A DNA stretch of 42,515 bases, taken from assembly GCA_964442125.1 (NCBI GenBank), contig CAYTWO010000006.1, positions 1-42,515 of the forward strand. The letters run 5' to 3'. Below the pieces are notes generated by a model. It did not search any database. It saw only the letters and a program-made list of their open reading frames with translations, and had not been told where the DNA came from. A program made the position numbers and the translations under genes. Shown piece by piece: positions 1 to 42,515 of this stretch; positions within the stretch are counted from its first letter, which is position 1; each line of letters opens with the position of its first letter. This DNA is from an uncultured Gemmatimonadota bacterium (lineage in GTDB: Bacteria; Gemmatimonadota; CAZMKB01; CAZNLH01).

Positions 1-759
1 TTCCATTCCCTCCTCCGTCATCCACCCGACCTTACCGTCATCCAGGCGAATTTGAATCCACTCCCCTACTCTGTCAGTTATCTGCACTTTCGTCCCTCCA
101 TGGAGCAGGAAGGTGTCAGGTCCCTCACGATCAGGGGAGTTCTTCACCTCTACTACTTCGGAGATTACTATACCATAGGACTGACTCGACAGCCTGGAGG
201 TCCTGGCGATAACGAGGACGACCAGAAGGGCAACGACTATCGATGCGCCGGTTCCGGACAAGAGGCTGTAACGCCTGGTCCTGAAGCCGCTCTTGAGAGT
301 AAAAAAGAGAATGGAAGCCAGCATTACCAGGTATCCAATATATGCCAGGACTATCATGATCGAGACCGAAAGCGAATCGACCAGGATTTCCCAGTATCTC
401 TTTATTATCAGGCTCGGAACAGGCTCTATCCTGTCGACCGCCATCAACCTCGCCACATCCAGGTTATGAGCGACATCCTCATCGTCAGGTAACCATCGAA
501 GCGCCCTTTCGTAATTCAGAATAGCCCGGGCGATATCCCCCTGACGGTAATAAGCGTTCCCGAGGTTATAGAAGAGGGGACCAGACACATACCCGTCACC
601 TATCAATCGCTGGAATACCCGGATTGCATCGCCATAATTCCCCTGCTGGAAGGATGTATTCCCTTCCCGAAAGGCACTTTCAGCTTCATCCAGCGACTGC
701 GTTGGTAATAAGGGAAATACGTTCAGCAGGAGAAAAGACAAGACCAGTATTGCCTTCAT
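1..759 (-). CDS. batE: BatE-like TPR + SH3 domain membrane protein (C-terminus runs off the window)
   Basis: Absent from the ORF track. The minus frame is open from ATG 759-757 (overlapping the batD stop as ATGA) to base 1. That is 253 codons, and I checked by hand that there is no tta/cta/tca in the plus triplets. The translation begins MKAILVLSFLLLNVFPLLPTQS. It has TPR-like YNLGNAYYRQGDIARAILNYERAL, a TM stretch, and an SH3-like GTKVQITDRVGEWIQIRLDDGKVGWM. The position after batD matches the Bacteroides bat operon order. Confidence 0.6.
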   Translation of the reverse strand, partial: MKAILVLSFLLLNVFPLLPTQSLDEAESAFREGNTSFQQGNYGDAIRVFQRLIGDGYVSGPLFYNLGNAYYRQGDIARAILNYERALRWLPDDEDVAHNLDVARLMAVDRIEPVPSLIIKRYWEILVDSLSVSIMIVLAYIGYLVMLASILFFTLKSGFRTRRYSLLSGTGASIVVALLVVLVIARTSRLSSQSYGIVISEVVEVKNSPDREGPDTFLLHGGTKVQITDRVGEWIQIRLDDGKVGWMTEEGME

Positions 760-2588
760 TGCAACTCCCTGTCCAGTTTATTCACAACGTCTTTTCCCTT
801 TCCAAATATCTCTTCCATCGCGGCCTTATCCGCGCTTCCCGGAGAATAACTCGCCATCGAACATGTCTCGAGTATCTCATGAAGCAGATCGACTATCTCC
901 GTTGAGATACCTTGTCCGGTGAGAAATGCCTTTGTTTTATCGAGGGAATATTCTCCCGGTTCGATATTTAACATGTCTCCGATATAACTCCACATCACCT
1001 GGGAGAGCTTCCCGTAAAACTCCTCTGTCTGATCGGCCTGTATTACACGACGAACCTCTTTAAATCCCCTTTGCGCATTCTTCGAGGCCCGCCTTTTCCT
1101 GAAGAGGGCTATGTTTCCCCTCGATCGCTTCACCCTTTTACCGTAAATCAGTACACCGATAAACCCCAGAAAGGGGAAAATGACCAGGGTAATGAACAAC
1201 GGGTGGTTGAAGAGATAATCTCCTCGCCGTTTCAGATCGAGATCCGTTAGCTTGATAAAACGGATATCCTTGCTCAACAACTCTACATCCATACGTGAAA
1301 TTTCTCCAGAGCCCCCAGCAGCCGCATAAGCCGACGGTTCTACCTGAAATTCATATGATGAAGATTTGATAGCGGAATATTTTTCAACCGATGGATCGAA
1401 GAAACTGTAACGGATCGGAGCTAAACGCACACTACCCTGTATTCTCGGAATCAGGAGATATTCGAATGTCTTAGTTCCTGATACAGTAGTATCTCGACGT
1501 TCGATTTTGTCCGTTACCTTGGGAGGATAGCTCTCTATCCCCGGAGGCAGCTCTATTTCAGGTGCTTCGAGGAGCTTGATGTTTCCCTCTCCGGAAATGG
1601 ACACCTTGAGGCTGACCGGCTCTCCCGTCTTTACCCGTGATTTGTCGATCGATACGTCCATGCGGTATTTTCCGACAGCCCCTTTGAAGTCGTCAGGAGC
1701 CCCCTCCGGTAGAGGATCGACGGTGACCGTCACGGGGTTGCTCCTCAGAATGTATTTTGCGGTCCTCCCAAACGGGTCCCTGAAAAGGGGGTCTTTGAAA
1801 AGAGACTCGAAGGGGTCTCTTCTCCCCCCGCGCTTTACCTGGATCAGTACCTGGAGCTCCATCGGATTTATCACGAGCTCACCTGTCTGTGTAGGGAAAA
1901 GGGCGATCTGCCGGACTATGCCGGTCGTGAATTGCCTCCCGTCAACAACTTCGTCTTTGACGTCAACGATCTCTCCCGACTGAAGGTCCTCACTCCAGAA
2001 ACCCGTGAGGGTCGGTGCCTTATGAATGGCGTAGTCATTTAAGCGAAAACGTGTGTATATCTTATATGTCAGAGTGATCTGCTCTCCCCGGACAGTCCTC
2101 TTCCTGTCGACAAAGGCCTCGAGAAAGATATTGTCGGCTATCTGGTCATCGGTTCCCGACCGTTCCGTTTTTTGCTGCTTCCGGGGCGGCTTTGACTGAA
2201 GGACATCGATCCGGATTGGTCGAGAGGAATAAGTTTTTCCATCAACCACTATCGACGCGCTTCCGATCGTGTAATTCCCTTCCGATTTCGGCTGAAGGAT
2301 ATAACTGTAAGTGACCGAAGACGACATCCTGCCGTTGACGAACTCGAAACTCGATGACTGGTTAGGGCCGGAAAGGACATAGAAGTCGCTCAGGTCTGGA
2401 AGTCTCAGGTCTTCCCCCCCGCCCATTCCTGCATTCTTCAGGACGAACGACAGGTTCAGTCGCTCTCCAACTGCCGGTTTTGTCTTATCGACAGAAGCCG
2501 AAAAAGAGACCTCAGCCGCCAGCGCATAGGCTTGTGTCGCTATAAAGGCGCAACCAACAAGAACAGCGCTTCTGAGGATTCTGATCAT
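756..2588 (-). CDS. batD: BatD-like oxygen-tolerance protein (signal peptide, C-terminal TM)
   Basis: 610 aa ORF with the signal peptide MIRILRSAVLVGCAFIATQAYA. It has the BatD-like repeated Ig-type architecture and a late TM segment (LFITLVIFPFLGFIGVLIY). It sits after batA/B/C. Confidence 0.75.
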   Translation of the reverse strand: MIRILRSAVLVGCAFIATQAYALAAEVSFSASVDKTKPAVGERLNLSFVLKNAGMGGGEDLRLPDLSDFYVLSGPNQSSSFEFVNGRMSSSVTYSYILQPKSEGNYTIGSASIVVDGKTYSSRPIRIDVLQSKPPRKQQKTERSGTDDQIADNIFLEAFVDRKRTVRGEQITLTYKIYTRFRLNDYAIHKAPTLTGFWSEDLQSGEIVDVKDEVVDGRQFTTGIVRQIALFPTQTGELVINPMELQVLIQVKRGGRRDPFESLFKDPLFRDPFGRTAKYILRSNPVTVTVDPLPEGAPDDFKGAVGKYRMDVSIDKSRVKTGEPVSLKVSISGEGNIKLLEAPEIELPPGIESYPPKVTDKIERRDTTVSGTKTFEYLLIPRIQGSVRLAPIRYSFFDPSVEKYSAIKSSSYEFQVEPSAYAAAGGSGEISRMDVELLSKDIRFIKLTDLDLKRRGDYLFNHPLFITLVIFPFLGFIGVLIYGKRVKRSRGNIALFRKRRASKNAQRGFKEVRRVIQADQTEEFYGKLSQVMWSYIGDMLNIEPGEYSLDKTKAFLTGQGISTEIVDLLHEILETCSMASYSPGSADKAAMEEIFGKGKDVVNKLDRELQ

Positions 2589-2589
2589 T

Positions 2590-3465
2590 TTACCAGTCCT
2601 TCTCCACTCGGACCCTTCCTCCTGGTTTTTCCCTGAGCTTTTTTTGAACCTCTCTCTCGTCTTCCCTCAGCGCCTGCAGGATCCTTTCCGCCTCTGACCG
2701 GGATATCCGCTCATCTTCAGGTTCAACAGGAGGACCTTCATCGGTACCCTGTTCGCTCTCATCCTTCTCACCCTGACCCGAAGACCCACCCTCCTCTTCA
2801 CTACCCTGATCACCCTCATCCCGGGATCTCTCCTGCTGCCCCCGCTCGTCATCTCCCTTTTCTTCGCCCTGTGACTGCTGATCCTGTCTGCTCTGCTGAT
2901 CTTCCATCTCTTCACGTTTTCTCATCGCATAGAGGAGGTTATATTTTGCGTCCAGGTCGTCAGGGTTTATTTTCAGTGATTCTATATACGACTGGATACT
3001 CTGATCGTACATCTGTTGTTTGAAAAGGGCGTTCCCACCGTTGAAAAAGGCCTTTGCAGCCATTTCATCGTCTTTTGAGACGGCAGCAGCCTTTTCGAAA
3101 GTACGGGTCGAGCCATCGAAATTTCCCTGCCTGTAAAGGGCGTCCCCCAGGTTGAAGCTCCCCTCCACAAGGTCTTTGTCTACCTCCAGGACCTTGCGGT
3201 ATTGCACCTCGGCTCCGGTGAAATCTTCCTCCTCATATGCCCTGTTCCCCTCCTTTATCAGGGAACGGGCAGACTGTGCCAGAAGAGAGCTCCATGGTGT
3301 GACCAACAGGGTCATCAATAGAGGTATAGCCAGGAACCTCATTCCTGAGGATTTATCGCGCATGCCCTTTGTCCTGATTTTACCCGGAACCTCGATAATA
3401 GTCTCCAACATGCCGCCCCCGTTTATTTCCTGTACACGATCCGTTTCTATTCCGTCTTCAGCCAC
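2590..3465 (-). CDS. batC: BatC-like TPR protein with acidic C-terminal tail
   Basis: TPR-like repeats (GNRAYEEEDFTGAEVQYRKVL, GDALYRQGNFDGSTRTFEKA, GNALFKQQMYDQSIQSYIESL) followed by a D/E/Q-rich tail. The true start may be an internal Met (MRFLAIPLLMTLL signal, near 3342). Confidence 0.7.
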   Translation of the reverse strand: MAEDGIETDRVQEINGGGMLETIIEVPGKIRTKGMRDKSSGMRFLAIPLLMTLLVTPWSSLLAQSARSLIKEGNRAYEEEDFTGAEVQYRKVLEVDKDLVEGSFNLGDALYRQGNFDGSTRTFEKAAAVSKDDEMAAKAFFNGGNALFKQQMYDQSIQSYIESLKINPDDLDAKYNLLYAMRKREEMEDQQSRQDQQSQGEEKGDDERGQQERSRDEGDQGSEEEGGSSGQGEKDESEQGTDEGPPVEPEDERISRSEAERILQALREDEREVQKKLREKPGGRVRVEKDW

Positions 3466-4487
3466 TTTTCAATCCACATAATTCGCCTCTCGGAAATCAG
3501 GAGCTCAACAAGGAGGAGAAGCAGACCGGCTGCAACGAAATATTGAAAGCGGCTTTCGTAGTCAGTAAACTGCTTCGTGCCGAACTCACGTTTCTCGAGC
3601 ACATTGATATCTTCGTAGATCTCGTTTAACTCATCCTGGGTGGTCGTTCCCTGAAAATACTTCCCCTTACCGTATGAGACCATCTTTTCCAGAGATAGAC
3701 GATCGAGCCGACTCATGACAACTTCACCCTTTCTATCTCTCTTGAAATCCACGCGTTGGCCCCTTGCGTCATAGATCGGTATAGGAGCCCCAGCTGATGA
3801 CCCCATTCCAATCACGTAAATAATTATGCCCTTACCGCTTGCCTCCTCGGCCGTCTCGAATATTTCACCTTCTGTGTTCTCGCCATCGGTAATAATGATG
3901 AGCACCTTGGTTGTCGACTCCTCGAAATCAAATGATTTCTCTGCCTGCTCAATGGCTCTCCCGATCGCTGTTCCCTGGACGGGAACGATATCCGTATCGA
4001 CAGCATCTATAAATAGTTCAGCAGCCGCGTAGTCTGTCGTAAGGGGGAACTGGGTGTACGCTTCACCCGCAAAAATGATCAATCCGATCCGGTCACCGGA
4101 AAAACGCTTGATAAGGTTCCGGATCTCCAGTCTGGCCTTTTCAAGCCTGTTTGGCCTGATATCCTCGGCCTTCATGCTGTTAGAAACATCGAGCGCGATG
4201 AAGATATCTACCCCCTCCAGCTTGACCTCTTCCAGCCTTGTTCCGATCTGGGGATTGGCCATGCCGATAAGGAGAATAACCATGCCTGCGATTAGCAGCA
4301 CAAACTTCCATAATGGTTTTGACCTGCTGGCCGTCCGGGAAAGTCGCCCGAGGAGATCCGGGTTCCCCAATCGTTTCACGGCACGCTTCTCCAACCTCCG
4401 GAAAAGCAGGTAGAAGACCACGAGAAGAGGCAGAGACATCAAGGCGTAGAGATATTCCGGATGAGCGAAACGCATCATCTCCGTCAT
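3447..4487 (-). CDS. batB: VWA domain protein, BatB-like
   Basis: N-terminal TM segments. VWA MIDAS motif (IFIALDVSNSM) and LIIITDGENT. Confidence 0.85.
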   Translation of the reverse strand: MTEMMRFAHPEYLYALMSLPLLVVFYLLFRRLEKRAVKRLGNPDLLGRLSRTASRSKPLWKFVLLIAGMVILLIGMANPQIGTRLEEVKLEGVDIFIALDVSNSMKAEDIRPNRLEKARLEIRNLIKRFSGDRIGLIIFAGEAYTQFPLTTDYAAAELFIDAVDTDIVPVQGTAIGRAIEQAEKSFDFEESTTKVLIIITDGENTEGEIFETAEEASGKGIIIYVIGMGSSAGAPIPIYDARGQRVDFKRDRKGEVVMSRLDRLSLEKMVSYGKGKYFQGTTTQDELNEIYEDINVLEKREFGTKQFTDYESRFQYFVAAGLLLLLVELLISERRIMWIEKWLKTE

Positions 4488-4521
4488 CGCAGAGGACCTC
4501 TCTCAGAAATGAATATCAGGT

Positions 4522-5520
4522 TCATGGTATTTTCCTGAACAACGTATTCGACAATCCAAACTCCAGCACCACGAGGAAGAGGGCAAGTCCGATCCAGCCA
4601 TAGAAAAGCTCCGCGTATTTCCTGTAGACACGTACCTCCATCTCCGTCTTCTCCAGCTCGTCGATCTCGGCATAAATGGCTTCAAGCTTCCTGTTATCGG
4701 TCGCCCGGTAGAACCTGCCTCTCGTCATTGCGGCTACTTTTTTGAGCGTCTCTTCATCTACCTCCACCGGGACGTTCTGATACCGGGTACCAAAGGGGGT
4801 TTGTACCGGATACGGAGCCGTTCCCATCGTTCCCACCCCCACCGTGTAGATCTTTATGCCGTAATTCCGTGCAATCTGTGTGGCGGTAAGCGGATCTATC
4901 TCACCGCGGTTGTTGACACCATCTGTAAGCAGGATCATCACCTTACTTTCAGCCTGGCTATCCTTGAGCCGGTTCACCCCGTTGGCGATGGCCATTCCTA
5001 TCGCGGTACCATCCTCGAGCAGGCCGCTTTTTACCCCGCTCAGCAACTCTTTAAGTACGCGGTAATCCATGGTCAGGGGGCACTGAGTGAAACTTTCTCC
5101 CGCAAAGACAACGAGCCCGATCCGATCGCTGATCCTCCCGTCGACGAATGACGCCGCTACAGATTTGGCCGCACCGATCCGATTGGGCTTGAAATCCTCG
5201 GCAAGCATGCTTCCGGATACGTCGAGAAGGAGCACGATATCTATCCCCTCTGTCGTGATCTCTTCGTCAATCGATACAGACTGTGGTCTGGCCAGGGCGA
5301 TTACGAGCACGCAAAGGGCAACCATGCGAAGTGAAAAGGTGAAATGACGGCCGCGCTCACGCCAGGTCTTCCTGATGTGCTGGAAAGGGGCAAGTGTGGG
5401 ATATCGATATTCACTCGTCCCCCTGTCATGACGCCATATATACCGGAATACGAGTACCGGGACGATCAGGAGGAGATAGAGAAACTCGGGATTCGCAAAG
5501 GTCACGTTATTCTGAAACAT
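4522..5520 (-). CDS. batA: VWA domain protein, BatA-like
   Basis: N-terminal FANPEFLYLLLIVPVLV. VWA MIDAS motif (IVLLLDVSGSM), MILLTDGVNN, and a C-terminal TM segment. Confidence 0.85.
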   Translation of the reverse strand: MFQNNVTFANPEFLYLLLIVPVLVFRYIWRHDRGTSEYRYPTLAPFQHIRKTWRERGRHFTFSLRMVALCVLVIALARPQSVSIDEEITTEGIDIVLLLDVSGSMLAEDFKPNRIGAAKSVAASFVDGRISDRIGLVVFAGESFTQCPLTMDYRVLKELLSGVKSGLLEDGTAIGMAIANGVNRLKDSQAESKVMILLTDGVNNRGEIDPLTATQIARNYGIKIYTVGVGTMGTAPYPVQTPFGTRYQNVPVEVDEETLKKVAAMTRGRFYRATDNRKLEAIYAEIDELEKTEMEVRVYRKYAELFYGWIGLALFLVVLEFGLSNTLFRKIP

Positions 5521-6517
5521 TTACCCTCACCTCCTGATCTTCCTGATCCGCCCGTTCATCTGCGACCTCGGCCGTATTTTCAACAACCGAAAATGCCAGC
5601 CTCAAAGTATCGGTGTTCTCATCGGGCAAGGGCTTGTATCTGGCGAATTTAACCAGGTCTGCCAGATTAAGCATCGATTCGAGATCACTTCTCGTCCCCG
5701 AAGGCATATCTATCGATTCTATATCATCCAGGATTTCATCTGTGGTCAGTTCCAGCGCTTGTATCCCGTACCGGCCATCGAGATATCCGCGAATGACCTC
5801 CGTGACCTCTGAATGGTAAGGCTTGATAAGTCCCTGTTGCCACAAACGTTTCTCCTCTATGATGTCCAACCTCTCTTTCGCGACGATATGAGGAGGTCTT
5901 GTCTCGATCACTTCTACAGGGGTTCGTTTTCTCCTCCCCCGCACTTTCAGGTACCTGAAGAGCAACCATGCAGCGACAATTATCGCGATGACAATGCCGA
6001 CCGGTGTCACCATTTCCTTCCAGGTCAATGCGAGACTCACCGGCTGCTTGATATCCTTGATATCGCGCGTGGTATCGACAGGGATAGAATGGATCACCAG
6101 GTCGATTGGAGAGGTCTCTATCTCCTTAAGAGTGGAGTCGCCCGGGAGGGAGTAAATAAACCTGAAGGGGGGTACGGTTACCTGACCGGTATCATAGGCA
6201 GCTATCCTGAAACCCGCTACCGATTCCTCTGTCGACAACCTGTGAACGGGATCCCTCTTGAGGACCAGTAGAGGACCGAGTGTGTCCCCTGTCAAAGACG
6301 TAAACGATGTCCCCTCCGGATGCTCGAGCCGCACCTCCACGTCGATCCAGTCACCTATCAGGTAGGCCGATGTATCGATCGATGCCTTGGCGGTAACGGG
6401 TCCTGACAAGCAGGAGACATCGGTTGAGTGTACCAGCAGAACCAGCAGGCCAAGCGGGCCGATGCGAACAAGAAATATTTTCAGGATTCGACTGATCTTG
6501 TCGGTAATGGCAACCAT
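5507..6517 (-). CDS. Bat-operon membrane protein of unknown function
   Basis: 336 aa ORF with an N-terminal hydrophobic segment and a central TM (VGIVIAIIVAAWLLF). It lies between the DUF58 and batA genes. No motif was recognised. Confidence 0.45.
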   Translation of the reverse strand: MVAITDKISRILKIFLVRIGPLGLLVLLVHSTDVSCLSGPVTAKASIDTSAYLIGDWIDVEVRLEHPEGTSFTSLTGDTLGPLLVLKRDPVHRLSTEESVAGFRIAAYDTGQVTVPPFRFIYSLPGDSTLKEIETSPIDLVIHSIPVDTTRDIKDIKQPVSLALTWKEMVTPVGIVIAIIVAAWLLFRYLKVRGRRKRTPVEVIETRPPHIVAKERLDIIEEKRLWQQGLIKPYHSEVTEVIRGYLDGRYGIQALELTTDEILDDIESIDMPSGTRSDLESMLNLADLVKFARYKPLPDENTDTLRLAFSVVENTAEVADERADQEDQEVRVNVSE

Positions 6518-6527
6518 ACCTTAATTC

Positions 6528-7406
6528 TCACCCAAGCCGGCGCTCTCGAAGACGGAAAAAATCTATGATCGGCTTGATATAGGGCCTGTCAACCGGGATG
6601 GTGATGTTGTCGATCCGGTTCCGGACCAGCAGCTTCCGGTATTTCCTGCGGTGTTCATTCCAGAATTCCCGGAAACTCTCCCTCACGCTTTCACTGCAGG
6701 TGTCGACCCACCGCTCTTCACTGCTCTCCGCATCGCGCAGTTTGACCAGACCCACTTCCGGCAGTTCCTCCTCCCTGGGATCGATAACCTCGACCGCAAT
6801 CAGGTCATGTTTACGGCTCAGGGTTCCGATAATCTTGTCATATCCCCAGTCCACGAAATCTGATACGAGGAATGCGATACATCTTTTGTTTATGACGTGA
6901 TTGAAGTATTCGAGCGCACCACGGATATCCGTTCCCACTCCTTCCGGCTCGAAGGAGACCAGCTCCCTGATTATGCGGAGGATATGCGCTCTTCCTTTTT
7001 TTGGCGGGACGAATTTTTCGATCCGGTCGGTGAAGAGGATCAATCCAACCTTGTCGTTGTTCTTGATCGCCGAGAACGCCAGCACAGCGCATATCTCGGT
7101 CGCTATTTCGTTCTTGAACTGTCGAACGGTACCGAATTCTCCGGAACGGCTGTAATCGACGATGAGCATAACGGTCAGTTCACGTTCCTCTTCGAAGACC
7201 TTCAGGTAGGGCTGGTCGAACCTCGCCGAAACCTTCCAGTCGATGTTTCTGACATCATCCCCGTACTGGTACTCCCGTACCTCCGAAAAATCGATCCCCA
7301 TCCCCTTGAAGACACTGTGGTACTCACCGGAAAAGACCTGATTTACGAGCCCCCGGGTCTTGAGTTCCACCATCCGGACCTTTTTCAGTATTTCACGTGT
7401 GTCCAT
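6528..7406 (-). CDS. DUF58 domain protein (MoxR-associated)
   Basis: Typical DUF58 N-terminus (VFSGEYHSVFKGMGIDFSEVREYQYGDDVRNIDWKVSAR). It lies immediately downstream of the moxR-type ATPase. Confidence 0.85.
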   Translation of the reverse strand: MDTREILKKVRMVELKTRGLVNQVFSGEYHSVFKGMGIDFSEVREYQYGDDVRNIDWKVSARFDQPYLKVFEEERELTVMLIVDYSRSGEFGTVRQFKNEIATEICAVLAFSAIKNNDKVGLILFTDRIEKFVPPKKGRAHILRIIRELVSFEPEGVGTDIRGALEYFNHVINKRCIAFLVSDFVDWGYDKIIGTLSRKHDLIAVEVIDPREEELPEVGLVKLRDAESSEERWVDTCSESVRESFREFWNEHRRKYRKLLVRNRIDNITIPVDRPYIKPIIDFFRLRERRLG

Positions 7407-7408
7407 TT

Positions 7409-8398
7409 TTAAGGGACTTCGATCTTGTTCAGGATATCGAGGACGAGCTGTTCAGGCGTCACCTCTTCGGCCTCCGCTTCATATGTCAAAGCTACGCGAT
7501 GCCTCAAGACATCCATGCATATTGCCCGGACGTCCTCCGGAATCACGTACCCCCGACGTTTGATGAACGCGAAGGCCTTTGCACCAAGCGCCAGATTGAT
7601 CGACGCGCGCGGTGAGGCGCCGTATTTGATCAGTTGTTTTTGGTCAGGGAGGCCGTACTTCGCCGGTTCTCTGGTGGCGAATACGATGTCGAGGATATAG
7701 CGCTCGATCTTTTCATCCATGTATATCTCCTGGACGACTTCCCGAGCCCGTATAATATCATCGGGTGACGCGACACGATTTGGCGGATCGGGCACCCCGC
7801 CAACGTTCCGGCGGAGTATCTCGAGCTCTTCTTCCTTGCTCGGATAATCGATCTTGACCTTCAGCATGAACCGGTCGATCTGAGCCTCCGGGAGCGGATA
7901 GGTCCCTTCCTGCTCGATCGGATTCTGCGTGGCCAGGACAAGAAACGGATCGGGGAGCAGGTAAGATTCCTCCCCGATCGTCACCTGACGTTCCTGCATA
8001 GACTCCAGGAGGGCGCTCTGCACCTTTGCCGGGGATCGGTTGATCTCATCTGCCAGGATGAAGTTGGCAAAGATCGGCCCTTTCCTGGTCTGGAATGAAC
8101 CGTCCCTGTGATTGTAGATCATCGTTCCGATCAGATCTGCGGGCAGAAGGTCGGGTGTGAACTGGATGCGCTGGAATTTCGCCCGGAATGTCGCGGCAAG
8201 CGAGTGAACGGCAAGTGTCTTTGCCAGTCCCGGGACTCCTTCCAGAAGAATATGCCCATTGGCCAGGAGACCAACCAGGAGCCGCTCGACCATCTCCTTC
8301 TGACCAACAATGACCTTCCCCATCTCCAGAAGGATGGCATCGACAAACGCGCTCTCTTTCTCGATCTTTTTGTTGATTTCTTGAATGTCCGTAGCCAT
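7409..8398 (-). CDS. moxR: MoxR-family AAA+ ATPase
   Basis: Walker A LLEGVPGLAKT and Walker B ILADEINR. Also VLATQNPIEQEGTYPLPEAQIDRF. Confidence 0.9.
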   Translation of the reverse strand: MATDIQEINKKIEKESAFVDAILLEMGKVIVGQKEMVERLLVGLLANGHILLEGVPGLAKTLAVHSLAATFRAKFQRIQFTPDLLPADLIGTMIYNHRDGSFQTRKGPIFANFILADEINRSPAKVQSALLESMQERQVTIGEESYLLPDPFLVLATQNPIEQEGTYPLPEAQIDRFMLKVKIDYPSKEEELEILRRNVGGVPDPPNRVASPDDIIRAREVVQEIYMDEKIERYILDIVFATREPAKYGLPDQKQLIKYGASPRASINLALGAKAFAFIKRRGYVIPEDVRAICMDVLRHRVALTYEAEAEEVTPEQLVLDILNKIEVP

Positions 8399-35701: not shown

Positions 35702-36508
35702 ATGAACCTATGGAAAACAACGATGCTCGCAGCCGTGACTCTTGCCCTGGGTTTCATCCTTGGAGGATCACGTGGTGAGGAACCGTATGGGGGTTCAATA
35801 GGTACAACGTTCCACGATGAGACCGAGCTCACTTTCGGCGAAGTTATCTCATCCGTTCTGAGATGGGGTGAGGAACCGAAAAAGGAAAAGTATTATGAAG
35901 GAGCGAGGGTGATCGACCTTCCAGATATGACTGCAGGCGACACAGGTGTCGAAGATGCAATCGCAAAGAGGAGGAGCGCGAGGAATTTCTCCAGGGGTTC
36001 TCTCTCGCTCCCTCAACTCTCCAGACTTCTGTACTCCTCATCGGGTATAACAGGGAAGAGTGGGAAAGATTCCGGTTTCAGAGCGGCACCTTCTGCTGGA
36101 GCGCTCTATCCGATCGAGACCTATGTCGTGGTCTTTGACGTCGACGGAATGGACCCCGGGATATACCATTATGTTCCTTCGAGGCACAAGCTGGAACTCG
36201 TCAGGGAGGGAAATTTCCATAACGATTTTATCTCGGCTGCTCTATATCAGGATATGGCCGGGAGGTGCGACCTGCTCTACGTGCTGACGGCGGTCTTCAG
36301 GAGGGTAACCTGGAAGTATGGCGATAGAGGATATCGTTATGCATATATCGAGGCAGGCGCCATATCCGAGAACATCTATCTTCAGGCGACCTCTCTCGGA
36401 CTGACTTCGGTTCTGATCGGGGCATTCTTCGATGACAAGGTATCAGAATTGATCGGAATCGATGGCAGAAAAGAAGCCCCTATTCTGCTGCACGCGGTGG
36501 GAACTTAG
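35702..36508 (+). CDS. SagB/ThcOx-type (nitroreductase superfamily) dehydrogenase with N-terminal TM/signal anchor
   Basis: RRSARNFS...LSLPQLSRLLYSSSGITG...FRAAPSAGALYPIETYVV...GIYHY.P is the SagB-type dehydrogenase signature. The N-terminus MNLWKTTMLAAVTLALGFILG is hydrophobic. Start at ATG 35702 after GAGGTG. Confidence 0.75.
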   Translation: MNLWKTTMLAAVTLALGFILGGSRGEEPYGGSIGTTFHDETELTFGEVISSVLRWGEEPKKEKYYEGARVIDLPDMTAGDTGVEDAIAKRRSARNFSRGSLSLPQLSRLLYSSSGITGKSGKDSGFRAAPSAGALYPIETYVVVFDVDGMDPGIYHYVPSRHKLELVREGNFHNDFISAALYQDMAGRCDLLYVLTAVFRRVTWKYGDRGYRYAYIEAGAISENIYLQATSLGLTSVLIGAFFDDKVSELIGIDGRKEAPILLHAVGT

Positions 36509-36514
36509 TTTAGT

Positions 36515-36715
36515 ATGAATGATGTCAGATATATTATCAGTTTCCTGTTGATCCTGTTCGTCTTTACAACAGGGATCGCCGGTTTGATCCAGGCGAAACT
36601 CGATCTTCATCACTTCCTCTACCACAGATACCTGGCATATGTTACACTTATTCTGAGTGCTCTCCACGTAGCTCTGAATTTTAAAAAACTATACCGTTAC
36701 CTGACCCGTCGTTAA
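36515..36715 (+). CDS. 66-aa two-TM, His-containing membrane protein
   Basis: Starts 6 nt after the SagB-type stop. Two hydrophobic helices (YIISFLLILFVFTTGIAGLI and YLAYVTLILSALHVALNF) carry H32, H33, H37 and H51. No family recognised. Confidence 0.45.
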   Translation: MNDVRYIISFLLILFVFTTGIAGLIQAKLDLHHFLYHRYLAYVTLILSALHVALNFKKLYRYLTRR

Positions 36716-37008
36716 TCAGGGACGACACAGAGACATTGCCAATCCTGGGAGTAATTGTTACAGCAGTCGAGCCAGCCTGGATACTGGGCGAGCCCCGGGA
36801 CTGAAGCTCCACCCCACCAGCAGATAAAAGCGGCACACAGGGGTAGATCACTGATCCAGGGGCACGGGTCGATGTTTCCGCACTGGCCAGTCTCCCAGCC
36901 GGGTAAAAAAACCATTCCGCAGTCAGAGCAGGCGTAACCGGACACATCCTTCCCACCTGACTTCTCTATACGTTTTGCGCTCCAGTTGATCGGCGTGAGA
37001 TGCTTCAT
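36712..37008 (-). CDS. Cys10/Trp7-rich small protein, paralog 1 (QhpC-like gamma-subunit / rSAM substrate candidate)
   Basis: 98 aa with an ATG start after GAGGGG. By hand alignment, 84/99 aligned positions are identical to paralog 2. All 10 Cys are conserved. Confidence 0.85.
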   Translation of the reverse strand: MKHLTPINWSAKRIEKSGGKDVSGYACSDCGMVFLPGWETGQCGNIDPCPWISDLPLCAAFICWWGGASVPGLAQYPGWLDCCNNYSQDWQCLCVVPD

Positions 37009-37170: not shown

Positions 37171-37323
37171 TCAGTCAGGGACCACGCAGAGACATTGCCA
37201 ATCCTGGGAGTAATTGTTGCAGCAGTCGAGCCGGTTCGGGTACTGGGCAACACCTTGGATCGATGCTCCACCCCAGGAGCAAATGAATGCGGTACATGCC
37301 GCTAGGTCTGCAGTCCAGGGACA
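37171..37323 (-). pseudogene. truncated, leaderless fourth copy of the Cys-rich gene (C-terminal half only)
   Basis: My translation of the minus frame ending at TGA 37173-37171 gives CPWTADLAACTAFICSWGGASIQGVAQYPNRLDCCNNYSQDWQCLCVVPD. Upstream, the frame has no ATG/GTG/TTG and no leader-like sequence before a stop at 37380-37378. Confidence 0.7.
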
Positions 37324-37373
37324 CCGCTCGTGATCTGGTCGACCTTCGAGTCCTTTGCAGGTACTCTTCCGTC

Positions 37374-37673
37374 TCAGTCAGGAACGACGCAGAGACACTG
37401 CCAATCCTGCGAGACATTGTTGCAGCAATCGAGCCAGCCAGGATACTGGGCAACTCCTGGAACCGACGTTCCGCCCCACCAGCAGATAAAAGAAGCACAC
37501 GCCGGGAGGTCTGAGGTCCAGGGACATGGATCGATGTTTCCGCACTGACCGGTCTCCCAGCCGGGTGCAAACATAGTCCCACAATCCGAGCAAGCATACC
37601 CGGACACATCGAGTTTAGATCCGGAACTTTCGATCCTCTTAGCTTTCCAGTTAAGGGGTTTGAGGTGTTTCAC
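37374..37673 (-). CDS. Cys10/Trp7-rich small protein, paralog 2
   Basis: 99 aa with a GTG start after GAAGGAGAG. Confidence 0.85.
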   Translation of the reverse strand: MKHLKPLNWKAKRIESSGSKLDVSGYACSDCGTMFAPGWETGQCGNIDPCPWTSDLPACASFICWWGGTSVPGVAQYPGWLDCCNNVSQDWQCLCVVPD

Positions 37674-37798: not shown

Positions 37799-38098
37799 CT
37801 AGTCAGGGACAACACAGAGACACTGAAAATCCTGCGAGACATTGTTGCAGCAGTCCATCCAGGCCGGATACTGGTTAATACCGGGGACCGAAGCCCCTGA
37901 CCACCAGCACGATGCCCAGTAGCAAGCGGGCAGATCAGCTGCCCAGGGACACGGGTCGATGTTCCCGCAGGCGCCTGTCTCCCAACCGGGTGCAAAACTC
38001 AATCCGCAGTCCGAGCAGGCATAACCGGACACGTCATTCTTCGAGCCCGAAGTCTCGATTCTTTTTGCCTTCCAATTGAGGGGTTTGAGGTGTTTCAA
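37799..38098 (-). CDS. Cys10/Trp7-rich small protein, paralog 3
   Basis: 99 aa with a TTG start after AAAGGAGAT, 35 nt after the propeller gene stop. 81/99 identical to paralog 2. Confidence 0.85.
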   Translation of the reverse strand: MKHLKPLNWKAKRIETSGSKNDVSGYACSDCGLSFAPGWETGACGNIDPCPWAADLPACYWASCWWSGASVPGINQYPAWMDCCNNVSQDFQCLCVVPD

Positions 38099-38133: not shown

Positions 38134-39180
38134 TCATGAACCCGCGCGCGCTGCTTGGTCTTCTGTGTCCTCAACAAGATTATCCCGTACGGCAATCACG
38201 TTCAGTGGCGTCGGGACTTTGACCTCCCTGATCAGATTTCCCTGGGTGTCGACACATGTGATTTGACCCTCATCCTCTCCGGTGTCGGCCGAAAGGTAGA
38301 TCATATCCGCTTTACCGTTCAATGTGATCCACCTGTGTTTGACTCCGAGATCCGTTCTCGAGATCTCCTCCCCATTCGAATCCATGATAACCAGTTCTGT
38401 CAAGCCATTGGCGAAGATTCTCGATCCATCTGGAGAGGTTACCATGCCCTGTATCTTGACCTTTTCATCCAGGCAGGTCCTCTTCTTCTCTCCGGTATCT
38501 GGAAAATAGTGCCAGACACATGTTGGATTATTTTCGCCCTGCTCCAGAAGATAGAAGTCTGAACCACCCCCGGAAAAAGCGATATGGCGGAGGATCACCA
38601 TGCGTCCTTCCCACTGCCCGCCTTCTCCGAACCATAACTTCTCTGAACCCGCAAAATCATCTGTTGGGACCTTCATAACTTCTCTGCCAGCCATATGGGT
38701 GACGTAGATATTGTCTCCAGAAGGATCCAGGAAGATCTCGTACGTCCATGGTTCGAGGTAAAAATCTTCGAGTTGACTGTAGTCACCTCCCGACAGCTTG
38801 AGGATCTTATGGGGTCCGTTCGACATGTCCGGTCTGTCTCCAGGATGATGCAGGACATAGATCTGGTCTCTCGTTCCTTCATACCTTACCGAATCGAGAA
38901 TGCCGAGCGGAACCGTCTGAACAATCTCCATGATGGAGGTGTCCACGACGAGTAGCCCCCGTGTCGTCGCGAGAAAGAGTCTGCCATCTTCCGCCAGTTC
39001 CAGGCCATTTATCTGCGCCCCAACGGAGACCTTCTCGACGATCTCCCCCGAACCCATATCTATCACGAAGAGATCGTTCCATCCTGCGTAAACAATATCG
39101 CCTGATCCCCCGTGACGTGAACAGCCGGGAAGGAACATGATAGGAAGCAGCAAAATAAGAGCCGACTTAAATCTCCACAT
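38134..39180 (-). CDS. beta-propeller lipoprotein (YVTN-type repeats), QhpB-sized
   Basis: Lipobox MFLPGC at the N-terminus. Repeated ~40-aa blade-like units (DGRLFLATTRGLLVVD, GDNIYVTHMAG, DGSRIFANGLTELVIMD). 348 aa. Confidence 0.7.
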   Translation of the reverse strand: MWRFKSALILLLPIMFLPGCSRHGGSGDIVYAGWNDLFVIDMGSGEIVEKVSVGAQINGLELAEDGRLFLATTRGLLVVDTSIMEIVQTVPLGILDSVRYEGTRDQIYVLHHPGDRPDMSNGPHKILKLSGGDYSQLEDFYLEPWTYEIFLDPSGDNIYVTHMAGREVMKVPTDDFAGSEKLWFGEGGQWEGRMVILRHIAFSGGGSDFYLLEQGENNPTCVWHYFPDTGEKKRTCLDEKVKIQGMVTSPDGSRIFANGLTELVIMDSNGEEISRTDLGVKHRWITLNGKADMIYLSADTGEDEGQITCVDTQGNLIREVKVPTPLNVIAVRDNLVEDTEDQAARAGS

Positions 39181-39198: not shown

Positions 39199-40221
39199 CT
39201 AATGGCCTACCGCGATGGTAAACGGAGACGCGTCCGGAACGAGGATCCTGTATAGAGGAGCGAGCGTTTTCGCGTTAAATATGGCCATGCTTCCGCCCGT
39301 ATCATAAACAGGATTGATCAGATAGAGTTTCTCGCCTCTATCACCGATTTCCATACCCTGGTAAGGTACATCAAGCGGTACCCAGCTGATCTCGGCTTCC
39401 TTTTCGAGATCGATGACAGACAGGAATCTGACCGCGTTCAGGTAGAGCTTTTTCCCGTCAGGGGAAAGGACCCCTCCACGCCACTTTGCTTCGTGATCCA
39501 GCGCAATCCTCCTCACGCTGTTTGTGGTCGTTTCGACAACCAGCACACCCGCCTGGTTTCCACCCTGCGCGATATAAATCTTGTTACTGTCTTTATCGCG
39601 GATCATCCGCCACAACATTCCCTGGTTCTGGTCTTTATGCTCGTACCCATAATCTCCAAGATCAAGGGTCTCGATCTGAGCACCGGACGTCAACTGAACG
39701 ATCTTCAGCTCGCTGTCGAGCAGGTCGAGGCAGTACAGGCGATCCTGCTCCGGGACGATTTCGATGTCGAACACCATCCGGTTCAGCTCGATCGTCCTCA
39801 ACAGTGTCTTACTGCTCAGGTCGTAGACCAGAAGTTTCGAGGGGAAGGCCTCAGCGGTTCCATCAGGCATCACTTTCCGGTCGTTCGTGAGGACGAACAT
39901 CCGGTTGCTTTCCTTCTCGATCTCAACCGTAAAAGCCGGCTTGTCCATCAAAAGTCCCTGGATCGTTCTCGTCTCGACATCGATGATATTGACCCCGTTG
40001 GATGCTCCGGCATAAACAGTTTTTCCGTCCGGAGAAACTGAAATGTTGTAGATCCACCTGTCGATCGGGATCTCCCCGGCTATCTTCCCGCTTTCCTCAT
40101 CGAGCACATAAAGTGTCGTGGCTCCCACGTACACTTCCGCTCCGTGAAGGTAAGTGGACTGGGCGAAGAACCCAGCGAGGGCAAGGGCAATCAACAATAT
40201 ACTGGCTATTTTCATCTTCAC
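39199..40221 (-). CDS. secreted beta-propeller protein (YVTN-type repeats), QhpB-sized
   Basis: Sec signal MKMKIASILLIALALAGFFAQS. Blade motifs VSPDGKTVYAGASNGVNIIDV, DSNKIYIAQGG and LSPDGKKLYLNA. 340 aa. Confidence 0.7.
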   Translation of the reverse strand: MKMKIASILLIALALAGFFAQSTYLHGAEVYVGATTLYVLDEESGKIAGEIPIDRWIYNISVSPDGKTVYAGASNGVNIIDVETRTIQGLLMDKPAFTVEIEKESNRMFVLTNDRKVMPDGTAEAFPSKLLVYDLSSKTLLRTIELNRMVFDIEIVPEQDRLYCLDLLDSELKIVQLTSGAQIETLDLGDYGYEHKDQNQGMLWRMIRDKDSNKIYIAQGGNQAGVLVVETTTNSVRRIALDHEAKWRGGVLSPDGKKLYLNAVRFLSVIDLEKEAEISWVPLDVPYQGMEIGDRGEKLYLINPVYDTGGSMAIFNAKTLAPLYRILVPDASPFTIAVGH

Positions 40222-40248: not shown

Positions 40249-40770
40249 TTATCTACTCTCTTTGTCCGATCCAACTTTGCTCAGGTCCTGCCGAGGTACA
40301 TCCGGCAACCAGTCGGGAGGAATCACGGCAATTGAAGACAGATCCCTCATGAGAACCCATCCCTCTCCCTCCCGGAAGTGTCGGTAAAACGCACCCACAA
40401 GACCTTCACCACAATCGATAGAGACCGCAGCCGTGAATACCCCGGTACGTCTATCAATGGTTCCGAGTTCTGGTCCCACCCTGGTCCCCCAGAATGCATT
40501 GACCGGCCCCACCAAGATGTCATCGCCACCACCGTCCTCCGGAATACCGTTTGGACCATTATTCCAGCCATTCGCCCTGAACCGCGCATAATATTGCGGT
40601 AAGCCAGTTCCCTGCAGCCTTGTACAAGGACCGGGAACACGGTTATTCCCAGGCGGTTCTACGATCTTGATGTAGTCAATTTCCTGGGAGCAGGCTTCGC
40701 TTGTGAACCCCATGAAAGCAATCATGTAGATTGCCAGAAACGCGATTGCCTTCCACTTGATAAATCTCAT
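40249..40770 (-). CDS. secreted 173-aa protein of unknown function
   Basis: N-terminal hydrophobic signal (AIAFLAIYMIAFMGFTSEA). No CxxCH and no motif I recognise. SD GGAGGAGGGG lies before the ATG. Confidence 0.6.
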   Translation of the reverse strand: MRFIKWKAIAFLAIYMIAFMGFTSEACSQEIDYIKIVEPPGNNRVPGPCTRLQGTGLPQYYARFRANGWNNGPNGIPEDGGGDDILVGPVNAFWGTRVGPELGTIDRRTGVFTAAVSIDCGEGLVGAFYRHFREGEGWVLMRDLSSIAVIPPDWLPDVPRQDLSKVGSDKESR

Positions 40771-40886: not shown

Positions 40887-42302
40887 TCAACAGGTGAGAT
40901 CCTCACCCGCACACATATCAAGGAATGCCGGATTCTGACGCATAAGGTCAAAATAGACATGTATACCAAACTCGTACCACTGCAGAAGGAGCTTACAGGT
41001 GAGCGCGTGAGGTTTTTTCAGGTCTCCGTTGTGGAGGTCTGAAAGGTAGTAACAACCACCGCCACAGAGATGCTTCGCCCAGCATGACCTGCAAGCCGGT
41101 TTTGAATCTACAAGGAGTGATCTTAACAGTTCCTCCCTCCTCCGGTCGTCTATCCCCTCCCTGAGGTTGCCTATCCGCAACTCCTCATTTCCTGAAAATC
41201 TGTGACAGATGTAGAAATCTCCCTCGGGCGAGGCGGCCATCAGCTTGAGCCCCGCTCCACAGGGAAGAGGTTTGGTATCACCCCGTTGAAGGAGCTTCAT
41301 CAAATTGATGATGTTGGTGAAACCGTAAACCTTCCCGGCAGAGGATTGTTCCTGAAACCGTCTGGCAAGGACCTTGAATCCATCGAGAAGCTGCCCCATC
41401 TCTCCTTCATCGAGGGCAAACTCCTCATTGACCGTATCGACAGGGGCCAGACCCACCTGTCTAAAACCGAGTCCGAGCAGGTGATCGACAACAGCGACGA
41501 CATCGATGTTGTTTTTCGTCAACGTTGCCCTGGCCGGTACCTGTCTTTCCTTCATTAATTTCGAGAGGTTGGATACCAGGAAATCGTATGAGCCTCGACC
41601 ATCAATGAATTTCCGGTGTTCATCATGTGCTTCTCTCGTACCATCTATGCTTATGGAAAGCTGGATGTTGTGTGAGTTTGAATAGCGGATTATATCTTCG
41701 GTGAGAAGTGTCCCGTTCGTTGTCAATGAAAAATCGATCTCTTTCCCGATTTCACCGGCCCTCTCCTCCCCCCTGCTGATAGCTGCCCGGACCGCCTCGA
41801 AGTTCATCAGGGGTTCCCCGCCGAAAAAGGTGATCATCACCTTATCGTCTTCCGTGCCGTCGAGAAGAAAATCAACGAGTTCCACGGCCACCTCTGGTTT
41901 CATGAGCTCTCTCTTCCCCCTGTAGCTCCCACCATCCGCGTAGCAATAACTGCAGGAGAGATTACAGGAGTGGGCGACATTCATCACAATATGTGAAACC
42001 TTCGGGAGTGGAACCTGGTTCCCGGAGCTTACATCCGCTTCAGTTCTCATCTCTTCCGAACCATTCGACACAAAACCAGCCTGTTCGAGCTCATCGATGG
42101 CGGTCTGAATCCTTGCTGCATCGAAGTCCCCTGAAAGTGTCTCGACCACACGCTCCCGTGTCGAGGGACTGTTTTTATCGAGGAACTCGAGGATTGAAAG
42201 GGATGTCGTATCGGGTTGAAAGATACCACATGTCTTGGTTGAAAACAGGATATCTTCCTGACCGTTCCTGAATCTCTTATATTTAATAGGTTTTAAGGGC
42301 AT
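40887..42302 (-). CDS. radical SAM / SPASM peptide-protein maturase (QhpD-like) with N-terminal RRE-like domain
   Basis: CNLSCSYC (CX3CX2C, codons at 41966-41943) and GGEPL. The full SPASM signature is C-x12-G-x4-C ... CRSCWAKHLCGGGC (CX2CX5CX3C) ... C. About 100 aa of winged-helix-like sequence precede the rSAM core (LSILEFLDKNSPSTRERVVETLSG...IDELEQAGFV). Confidence 0.85.
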   Translation of the reverse strand: MPLKPIKYKRFRNGQEDILFSTKTCGIFQPDTTSLSILEFLDKNSPSTRERVVETLSGDFDAARIQTAIDELEQAGFVSNGSEEMRTEADVSSGNQVPLPKVSHIVMNVAHSCNLSCSYCYADGGSYRGKRELMKPEVAVELVDFLLDGTEDDKVMITFFGGEPLMNFEAVRAAISRGEERAGEIGKEIDFSLTTNGTLLTEDIIRYSNSHNIQLSISIDGTREAHDEHRKFIDGRGSYDFLVSNLSKLMKERQVPARATLTKNNIDVVAVVDHLLGLGFRQVGLAPVDTVNEEFALDEGEMGQLLDGFKVLARRFQEQSSAGKVYGFTNIINLMKLLQRGDTKPLPCGAGLKLMAASPEGDFYICHRFSGNEELRIGNLREGIDDRRREELLRSLLVDSKPACRSCWAKHLCGGGCYYLSDLHNGDLKKPHALTCKLLLQWYEFGIHVYFDLMRQNPAFLDMCAGEDLTC

Positions 42303-42488: not shown

Positions 42489-42515
42489 ATGTTTCAAACC
42501 CTTCACCGGTTTACC
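42489..42515 (+). CDS. possible start of a divergent gene (only 9 codons in window)
   Basis: AAGGAG lies 4 nt before ATG 42489 (MFQTLHRFT...). Too short to evaluate. Confidence 0.2.

Follow-up and report, generated by a model that had tools for sequence, protein, structure and literature searches.

To our knowledge, quinohemoprotein amine dehydrogenase (QHNDH) is the only enzyme that joins thioether stitching by a radical S-adenosylmethionine (SAM) enzyme with the biogenesis of a quinone cofactor, and it has been studied in two proteobacterial enzymes only, both of which are di-haem proteins with an O2-dependent hydroxylase. In the canonical gene layout, as found in Rhodovulum (locus L010), qhpG is followed by qhpA-D-C-B-E-F and by the gene for an AraC regulator, and canonical QhpA (L009, L010) carries two CxxCH motifs. 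The gamma subunit QhpC, known from the enzymes of P. denitrificans (1JJU/1PBY) and P. putida (1JMX/1JMZ), contains the cofactor cysteine tryptophylquinone (CTQ); its leader, which is 28 residues long in P. denitrificans, is needed for binding of the radical SAM enzyme QhpD and is cut off by the protease QhpE (PMC7876137). A 2025 review covers QHNDH, LodA and GoxA as the only CTQ enzymes (PMC11951088). The DNA analysed here is a contig of 42,515 nucleotides from an uncultured Gemmatimonadota bacterium (CAYTWO010000006.1, assembly GCA_964442125.1; "the window" in the following is this whole contig), with emphasis on a Cys- and Trp-rich protein of 99 residues encoded at 37374..37673 on the minus strand and on the genes around it. 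Judged from its sequence, the system is a divergent, haem-less QHNDH-like variant located in a rare gene cluster, and the window probably encodes QhpC-type gamma precursors of a haem-less, CTQ-dependent amine dehydrogenase matured by a QhpD-like enzyme.

The window contains three intact genes of this kind (gamma paralogs 1 to 3, the gene at 37374..37673 being paralog 2; Table 1), the products of which are, by profile comparison, genuine and divergent relatives of QhpC. The NCBIfam equivalog model NF037958 (QH_gamma), with a cut-off of 50 bits, scored 51.7 bits with paralog 2 (E 6.5e-14), 51.6 bits with paralog 3 and 41.5 bits with paralog 1, and the sole phmmer matches of paralog 2 in the PDB were the QHNDH gamma chains 1JJU_C (E 3.3e-7) and 1JMX_G (E 6.7e-4). 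A hidden Markov model (HMM) built from 120 canonical QhpCs alone (P0034-P0153, the canonical reference set) aligned end-to-end with each of the three paralogs and gave 32.8-42.8 bits, whereas 3000 composition-matched shuffles peaked at 9.1 bits on this HMM, which rules out a chance resemblance. The relatedness to QhpC proposed in a first-pass annotation of the contig, made from the sequence without database searches, was thereby borne out. The homology spans the whole protein, leader included: gamma residues 1-24 align with the canonical QhpC leader, with which they have the motif MKHLKPLN.KA+RIE in common, and the mature N-terminus is predicted at G25, six residues before the Cys7 equivalent. 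These 24 residues correspond to the leader-like segment that the first-pass annotation had placed before about G25. Residues 1-32 also match TIGR04118, the AC3_0185 family of radical SAM-modified, Cys-rich peptides made by the ribosome and modified after translation (RiPPs), with an E-value of 3.4e-6 for paralog 1, and one leader type is apparently common to QhpC-like proteins and CXXX-repeat RiPP precursors.

Translation of paralog 2 places Cys at positions 28, 31, 44, 50, 59, 64, 83, 84, 93 and 95 and Trp at positions 9, 39, 52, 65, 66, 80 and 91, exactly as first listed, and the QhpC numbering given there agrees with the sequence of 1JJU_C, which has C7, E16, C27, D33, C37, C41, W43 and D49. 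In pairwise and profile alignments to QhpC the PGWE and CWW motifs occupy homologous positions, and every proposed equivalence is upheld: C31 and E40 (spacing +9) with Cys7 and Glu16, C50 and D55 (+5) with Cys27 and Asp33, C59 and W66 (+7) with Cys37 and Trp43, and C64 (W66 at +2) with Cys41. The four spacings had been counted correctly, and the two that differ from the +6 of QhpC appear in the alignment as single-residue indels, the insertion of the CTQ site being located between C59 and C64. The columns of C31, E40, C50, D55, C59, C64 and W66 are 100% conserved in the 120 canonical QhpCs, and D90 of the C-terminal DW motif, likewise invariant in this set, is retained in gamma. Moreover, D55 is invariant in a 32-sequence alignment (A2), and C59, W66 and D55 are strictly retained across all gamma paralogs and all of the related loci described below.

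Unlike QhpC, gamma has no equivalent of Asp49, to which the third thioether is attached. All 120 canonical QhpCs carry the motif C-[WFY]-W-P-A-Q-V-P-D, in which Asp49 is the last residue, and Asp49 is also kept in intermediate sequences such as P0005-P0009 and in the gamma protein of one related locus ('QVAD' in L013). Every member of the window clade (the three window paralogs, the gamma proteins of L001 (two), L004, L007, L011 (five), L002 (two), L003, L008 and L012, and P0003) shows S-V-P-G in place of QVPD. Aligners differ in whether they place the Asp49 column at P72, at G73 or in a gap, G73 or a deletion being the most likely; the column is non-acidic throughout, and no acidic residue was found between C64 and D82 of gamma. 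A Cys41-Asp49 bridge of the QHNDH kind is therefore impossible. The first-pass annotation was right about the Pro at +8 from C64 and about the missing third acceptor, but this Pro (P72) is most likely not the residue homologous to Asp49.

As in QHNDH, the gamma genes are adjoined by genes for a QhpD-like radical SAM/SPASM enzyme, for a QhpB-like propeller (beta) and for a protein corresponding to domain IV of QhpA (alpha-prime). The best NCBIfam model for the radical SAM enzyme was QhpD (TIGR03906, 388.4 bits), followed by PapB (NF047865, 308.6 bits, cut-off 340) and the SCIFF maturase (TIGR03974, 294.1 bits, cut-off 425), and the enzyme is 32% identical to the QhpD of Rhodovulum (E 2e-91). 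Alpha-prime scored 25.9 bits on PF09100 (gathering threshold 25) and matched residues 339-412 of 1JJU_A in a phmmer search (E 1.3e-5); its AlphaFold2 (AF2) model, with a pLDDT of 78.6, had 1JJU_A as the sole Foldseek match in the PDB below 1e-3. Unlike canonical QhpA, it comprises domain IV alone, without the di-haem domain and without domains II-III, and with 19.7 bits on TIGR03908, against a cut-off of 274, it falls outside the definition of the ~60-kDa di-haem QhpA. Beta aligned over its whole length with two canonical QhpB sequences (hhalign probability 98.6%, E 1.3e-15, 315 columns) and matched 1JMX_B (E 5e-5). The second propeller, beta-prime, which has no counterpart in the canonical system and is present in all loci, is a paralog of beta (25% identity, E 4e-17) and aligned partially with canonical QhpB (hhalign probability 93.8%). 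No CxxCH motif was found in alpha-prime, beta or beta-prime of the window or of any related locus. Since there are no built-in c-type haems, the electrons would have to go to a separate acceptor.

The module consisting of the radical SAM, alpha-prime, beta, beta-prime and gamma genes is kept in every locus recovered, about ten loci of metagenomic origin (the window and its near-identical JGI contig L006, L001, L004, L007, L011, L002, L003, L008, L012 and L013), with one to five gamma copies per locus. L012 and L013 were obtained from a metagenome scan with alpha-prime patterns; a separate scan with gamma peptide patterns gave nothing. L012 is a 5.5-kb contig that begins inside the radical SAM gene, its upstream region lying outside the contig, and the QhpD-like gene of L013 (L013:5721-7211) contains an in-frame stop at about 6861, which is either an assembly error or the mark of a pseudogene. 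The haem-less gamma family is rare: its relatives form five clusters among 5.8 billion proteins and alpha-prime forms 11 clusters, compared with about 3800 clusters for the canonical QhpC family. A total of 29 profile matches to any QhpC type were found among 1.84 billion representatives, and the family is present in two of 185,579 species-representative genomes, one Candidatus Glassbacteria and one Gemmatimonadota metagenome-assembled genome (MAG). Unlike the QHNDHs studied to date, the predicted haem-less system belongs to uncultured, non-proteobacterial lineages. The loci differ in their alpha-prime, which is short (173-194 residues) in the window, L006, L011, L001, L004 and L007, and long (about 300-320 residues, with an extra N-terminal domain) in L002, L003, L008, L012 and L013. 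Short alpha-primes (the window's and P0155-P0161) have a conserved C-terminal tail, P.QDLSKVGSDKE, which is of low confidence and is absent from long alpha-primes and from QhpA. As L013 is haem-less and yet keeps Asp49, the haem domain was lost first, and the third thioether was lost later within the haem-less lineage.

In the proposed system, modelled by homology on the published QHNDH pathway (PMC7876137), the gamma leader of ~24 residues would be bound by the adjacent QhpD-like radical SAM enzyme, which would join Cys to the side chains of Glu and Asp through thioethers (C31-E40 and C50-D55). W66 would be dihydroxylated and joined to C59, resulting in CTQ; the leader would be cut off, and the cross-linked core would leave by ABC export to assemble with the secreted alpha-prime and beta and the lipoprotein beta-prime outside the cytoplasmic membrane. 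After export, C64 would most likely form disulfides together with Cys 28, 44, 83, 93 and 95, which are specific to the clade, giving a hybrid thioether/disulfide scaffold. The homology of the five gene products, the conservation of the cross-link and CTQ residues, the loss of Asp49, the lack of haem motifs and the conserved synteny are established here; how the residues are modified, how the subunits assemble, what the complex does and where its electrons go we infer.

Several observations weigh against this proposal. On PF08992 (gathering threshold 25) paralogs 2, 3 and 1 reached 21.6, 24.7 and 16.8 bits, respectively, the radical SAM enzyme fell short of the TIGR03906 equivalog cut-off of 453, and beta scored 46.7 bits on TIGR03907 (cut-off 223). 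One of the three thioether sites that define QHNDH is missing in gamma, and the AF2 model of paralog 2 (42-sequence alignment; pLDDT 42.5, pTM 0.19) is unusable for judging the proximity of Cys pairs. No qhpE, qhpF, qhpG or qhpR is adjacent to the gamma genes of the window. Homologs of QhpE, QhpF, QhpG and U32 proteins were sought across the whole contig and none was found, nor was a hydroxylase (QhpG or U32), a leader protease or an exporter present within 10 kb upstream in L011; no electron acceptor was identified. In view of the lack of a hydroxylase, protease and exporter in the window, CTQ maturation in this organism is unproven.

One alternative is that gamma is a cross-linked but quinone-less relic, forming a complex with the propellers without CTQ and being non-catalytic or having another function. 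It would fit with the finding that QhpG, a U32 protein and a haem protein are all lacking in the window and within 10 kb in L011, L001 and L004, the latter three loci also being devoid of a QhpE protease and an ABC exporter, and with the absence of the alpha-subunit haems, which were proposed to perform the final oxidation to CTQ (PMC7876137). We nevertheless consider a relic unlikely: no paralog or locus departs from C59, W66 and D55, purifying selection is strong, the accessory genes may be located elsewhere in the genome, and the sister loci tie the module to a U32 protein in two gene arrangements.

In these four sister loci (L002, L003, L008 and L013) the module is accompanied by genes for an S8 protease, an ABC exporter, a U32-family protein and a conserved partner (Table 1). 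The best model for the protease is QhpE (NF049966, 136.7 bits, cut-off 165) and the exporter is of the MsbA type, which matches the published QhpE/QhpF route (PMC7876137). The U32 protein is above threshold on PF01136 (122 bits), has UbiU (60 bits, cut-off 440) and TrhP (52 bits, cut-off 534) as its best NCBIfam models, and holds the place that the O2-dependent hydroxylase QhpG has in canonical operons; a QhpG-type flavoprotein was found in none of the haem-less loci recovered. Its partner has no match in Pfam, NCBIfam or the PDB, and an assignment of the partner from L002, L003 and L008 as a UbiV-like U32 protein was rejected (hhalign probability against the U32 profile 1.4%). The block of four genes is divergent from the module in L002, L003 and L008 and co-directional in L013, and these two arrangements therefore favour functional coupling over inherited synteny. 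L008 has in addition a second, more divergent U32 gene with a partner gene directly downstream of gamma (L008:11036-12673). U32 proteins have been proposed to be prephenate-dependent, O2-independent hydroxylases, most subfamilies being uncharacterised (PMC10990095). The linkage of a U32 gene with the module in the sister loci, without QhpG, suggests that Trp hydroxylation in these may be O2-independent. UbiU/UbiV, TrhP and RlhA are U32-family hydroxylases that work without O2, and we know of no precedent for a protein substrate of a U32 enzyme.

A second alternative, in which the gamma proteins are stand-alone, secreted ranthipeptide-like RiPPs produced by a PapB/SCIFF-type maturase and the propellers are unrelated neighbours or immunity or receptor proteins, finds a basis in the radical SAM enzyme itself, which belongs to the same SPASM subfamily as PapB and ScfB, enzymes that form Cys-to-side-chain thioethers, and scores on both models (308.6 and 294.1 bits). 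The TIGR04118 match of the leader, two Cys-X3-Asp motifs (C44-D48 and C95-D99) like those of PapB substrates, and the one to five precursor copies per locus, typical of RiPP clusters, point the same way. The enzyme is, however, below the PapB and SCIFF cut-offs with QhpD as its best model, and unlike ranthipeptides the precursors match QH_gamma rather than SCIFF and have a 75-residue core with an invariant Cys/Trp quinone pair and an invariant Asp33 equivalent. Furthermore, QHNDH subunits have homologs in alpha-prime, beta and beta-prime, all three of which are co-inherited with gamma in every locus, and we regard a RiPP system of this kind as distinctly unlikely.

The cysteines outside the predicted thioether and CTQ sites bear on the scaffold of the proposed amine dehydrogenase. 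Gamma indeed has six more Cys (28, 44, 83, 84, 93 and 95) than the crystallised QhpCs, as the first-pass annotation stated, but its view that none of them has a QhpC counterpart does not hold for C84. This column is Cys in 112 of the 120 canonical QhpCs, with the DW motif's invariant Asp always following six residues later, and lacks Cys in both crystallised QhpCs; by this distribution, C84 is ancestral rather than new and the crystallised QhpCs are atypical. The C-x5-D spacing at C84 is the same as that of the Cys27-Asp33 thioether, and most QHNDHs might carry a fourth thioether or a free Cys at this column. C95 is common to a wider 'LC.VPD' group, C28 is also seen in a few sequences that do not belong to the clade (P0005, P0011 and L013 gamma), and C44 is confined to the clade without Asp49. 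C83 and C93 co-vary, both being present in most members and neither in L003 and L007, a pattern that a disulfide pair would show.

A precedent for disulfides in a small tryptophylquinone subunit is the light (beta) subunit of methylamine dehydrogenase (MADH) and aromatic amine dehydrogenase, which resembles the predicted gamma in being small, Cys-rich, combined with a seven-bladed propeller and free of built-in haem. These enzymes pass their electrons to a separate carrier, as the predicted enzyme would. The tryptophan tryptophylquinone of these enzymes is formed between two Trp residues in the periplasm by the di-haem protein MauG, with no radical SAM step and no thioethers. No gamma paralog had a Pfam or NCBIfam match to the MADH light-chain family at E<=1. 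The MADH scaffold has six disulfides as against the three thioethers of QHNDH (PMC7876137), and, where the first-pass annotation suggested a more heavily cross-linked fold, the extra Cys of gamma could be further thioethers or equally disulfides, as in the MADH light subunit. Combining two thioether sites with a CTQ site and as many as three possible cystines, window gamma looks like a hybrid of the two scaffolds. If all unassigned Cys are disulfides, their number is odd (5 or 7), and it is even if either C84-D90 or C95-D99 is a thioether; this parity does not discriminate between the models. That the clade-specific Cys (28, 44, 64, 83/84 and 93/95) ligate a metal or Fe-S centre as an electron relay replacing the haems, for which the CxxC (28/31), CC (83/84) and CxC (93/95) spacings, the odd count under an all-disulfide model and the loss of any internal redox relay with the haem domain could be cited, is highly improbable, as C31 is already assigned to the Glu thioether, the number of extra Cys varies from 3-4 in the L013/P0005 type over five in L003 and L007 to seven in the window, and canonical gamma is cross-linked in the cytoplasm and then leaves through an ABC transporter (PMC7876137), a route not known for Fe-S clusters.

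Taken further, the predicted haem-less amine dehydrogenase could represent an undescribed CTQ lineage that is probably O2-independent, with Trp hydroxylated by a prephenate-type U32 Fe-S enzyme instead of QhpG, with the second propeller and the domain IV stub replacing the di-haem alpha subunit, and with one thioether swapped for a disulfide (C64 with C44 or C28) in the sub-branch of the window, resulting in a QHNDH/MADH scaffold hybrid. We put this forward tentatively, as a doubtful extension of the proposal. A full-text, non-exhaustive literature search returned no paper linking CTQ or QHNDH to U32 proteins and none describing a haem-less QHNDH.

The three intact gamma copies are old duplicates retained by purifying selection, as judged from the pairwise proportions of nonsynonymous differences (pN 0.09-0.22), which are far below the near-saturated synonymous ones (pS about 0.6-0.75). 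Paralogs 1 and 2 are 84-86% identical, with a pN of 0.09 versus a pS of 0.65. Paralog 2 has a GTG start preceded by a GGAG ribosome-binding site (GAAGGAG). The stretch in which the paralogs diverge most, residues 60-63, separates the CTQ Cys from C64 (ASFI, AAFI and YWAS, with ASFI in paralog 2 and YWAS in paralog 3); as they differ most beside the CTQ Cys, they probably yield isoenzymes. Between paralogs 1 and 2 lies a 5'-truncated remnant without the leader and without the C31/E40 segment, which shows changes at positions conserved in the family (W65S, V71I, P72Q, G79N and W80R). In L006, a spurious ORF of 144 residues was called over this remnant (37175-37609, same strand, other frame). The 146-kb contig L011, the radical SAM protein of which is 93% identical to that of the window, carries five intact tandem gamma paralogs (L011:14182-16263), and comparison with the three copies and the remnant of the window indicates that gamma copy number is evolving fast. 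The canonical operon has a single gamma gene.

Table 1. Predicted features of the gamma region of the window, with the four linked genes of the sister loci; positions refer to the window unless a locus is named.
Feature	Coordinates	Strand	Basis
QhpD-like radical SAM/SPASM maturase, 471 residues, CNLSCSYC at 113-120	40887..42302	-	TIGR03906 best model
Alpha-prime, 173 residues, signal peptide and single domain equivalent to QhpA domain IV	40249..40770	-	PF09100, 1JJU_A
Beta, QhpB-like seven-bladed propeller, signal peptide	39199..40221	-	hhalign, TIGR03907, 1JMX_B
Beta-prime, second propeller, lipoprotein signal (LPGC)	38134..39180	-	beta paralog
Gamma paralog 3, 99 residues, TTG start	37799..38098	-	NF037958 51.6 bits, PF08992 24.7 bits
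Gamma paralog 2 (QhpC-like precursor), 99 residues	37374..37673	-	NF037958, PF08992 and 1JJU_C matches
Paralog 2, predicted leader, residues 1-24	37602..37673	-	
Paralog 2, predicted core, residues 25-99	37377..37601	-	
Paralog 2, stop codon	37374..37376	-	
Paralog 2, predicted thioether 1, C31...E40 (CGTMFAPGWE), Cys7-Glu16 equivalent	37554..37583	-	aligned columns
Paralog 2, predicted thioether 2, C50...D55 (CPWTSD), Cys27-Asp33 equivalent with one-residue deletion	37509..37526	-	aligned columns
Paralog 2, predicted CTQ pair, C59...W66 (CASFICWW), Cys37 and Trp43 equivalent with one-residue insertion	37476..37499	-	aligned columns
Paralog 2, C64...G73 (CWWGGTSVPG), Cys41 equivalent with acceptor Asp49 replaced	37455..37484	-	alignments
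5'-truncated gamma remnant, C-terminal 50 codons and stop	37171..37323	-	blastn, 79% identity to 3' half of paralog 2
Gamma paralog 1, 98 residues, ATG start	36712..37008	-	NF037958 41.5 bits
66-residue two-helix membrane protein, four His, possible accessory	36515..36715	+	weak Ferric_reduct and DUF4405 matches alone
Membrane-anchored SagB-type dehydrogenase (nitroreductase fold, FMN), possible accessory	35702..36508	+	TIGR03605 155 bits (cut-off 78)
Block of four linked genes in sister loci (S8 protease, ABC exporter, U32-family protein, conserved partner)	L002:99-4601; L003:543-5085; L008:1300-5972; L013:9873-14475		

The SagB-like gene and the gene for the 66-residue protein form a pair that is convergent with the gamma genes. 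A SagB-like gene is also located beside gamma in L004 and L011, and is lacking there in L001, L007, L002, L003 and L008; the 66-residue gene always accompanies it (L004, L006 and L011), and in the more distant L004 the pair has a different outer context. The pair could be a redox partner of the module or be unrelated to it. In L007, the module is flanked (L007:13436-19659 and 4693-8268) by genes for a cytochrome c7-like protein, a molybdopterin oxidoreductase with NrfD/ActD-type membrane subunits, a multihaem cytochrome and a B12-binding radical SAM enzyme; these redox genes, which are not conserved elsewhere, could be respiratory partners. On the other side of the radical SAM gene, a divergent gene (MFQTLHRFT...) begins at the end of the window (42489-42515, plus strand). 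The matching upstream block of L001 (L001:2126-5405) and L011 (L011:6998-9632) encodes an unannotated protein of ~270-290 residues and two BrxC/BrxD-like ATPases, with a DEAD helicase also present in L011. By its gene content this block looks like a defence-type island outside the qhp-like cluster. Further away, the minus strand of the window encodes an aerotolerance-type Bat cluster (756-8398; BatD, a TPR protein, BatB/BatA-type VWA proteins, a DUF58 protein and a MoxR AAA+ ATPase), and the remaining genes of the contig have housekeeping roles (dxs, ispA, xseA, folD, rny, zapA, pheST, rplT, infC and thrS).

For annotation, this family has a practical consequence: automatic pipelines will label paralogs 2 and 3 as 'quinohemoprotein amine dehydrogenase subunit gamma', even though no haem protein is part of the predicted enzyme. 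With its haems and one thioether gone and Cys pairs gained, such a natural variant can show which cross-links CTQ formation and the fold really require, and it bears on how the final oxidation of CTQ proceeds when the proposed haem oxidant is absent. The sister loci bear on tryptophylquinone synthesis without O2. If the U32 reading is true, they would provide the first protein substrate of a U32 hydroxylase and a way of making a tryptophylquinone anaerobically.

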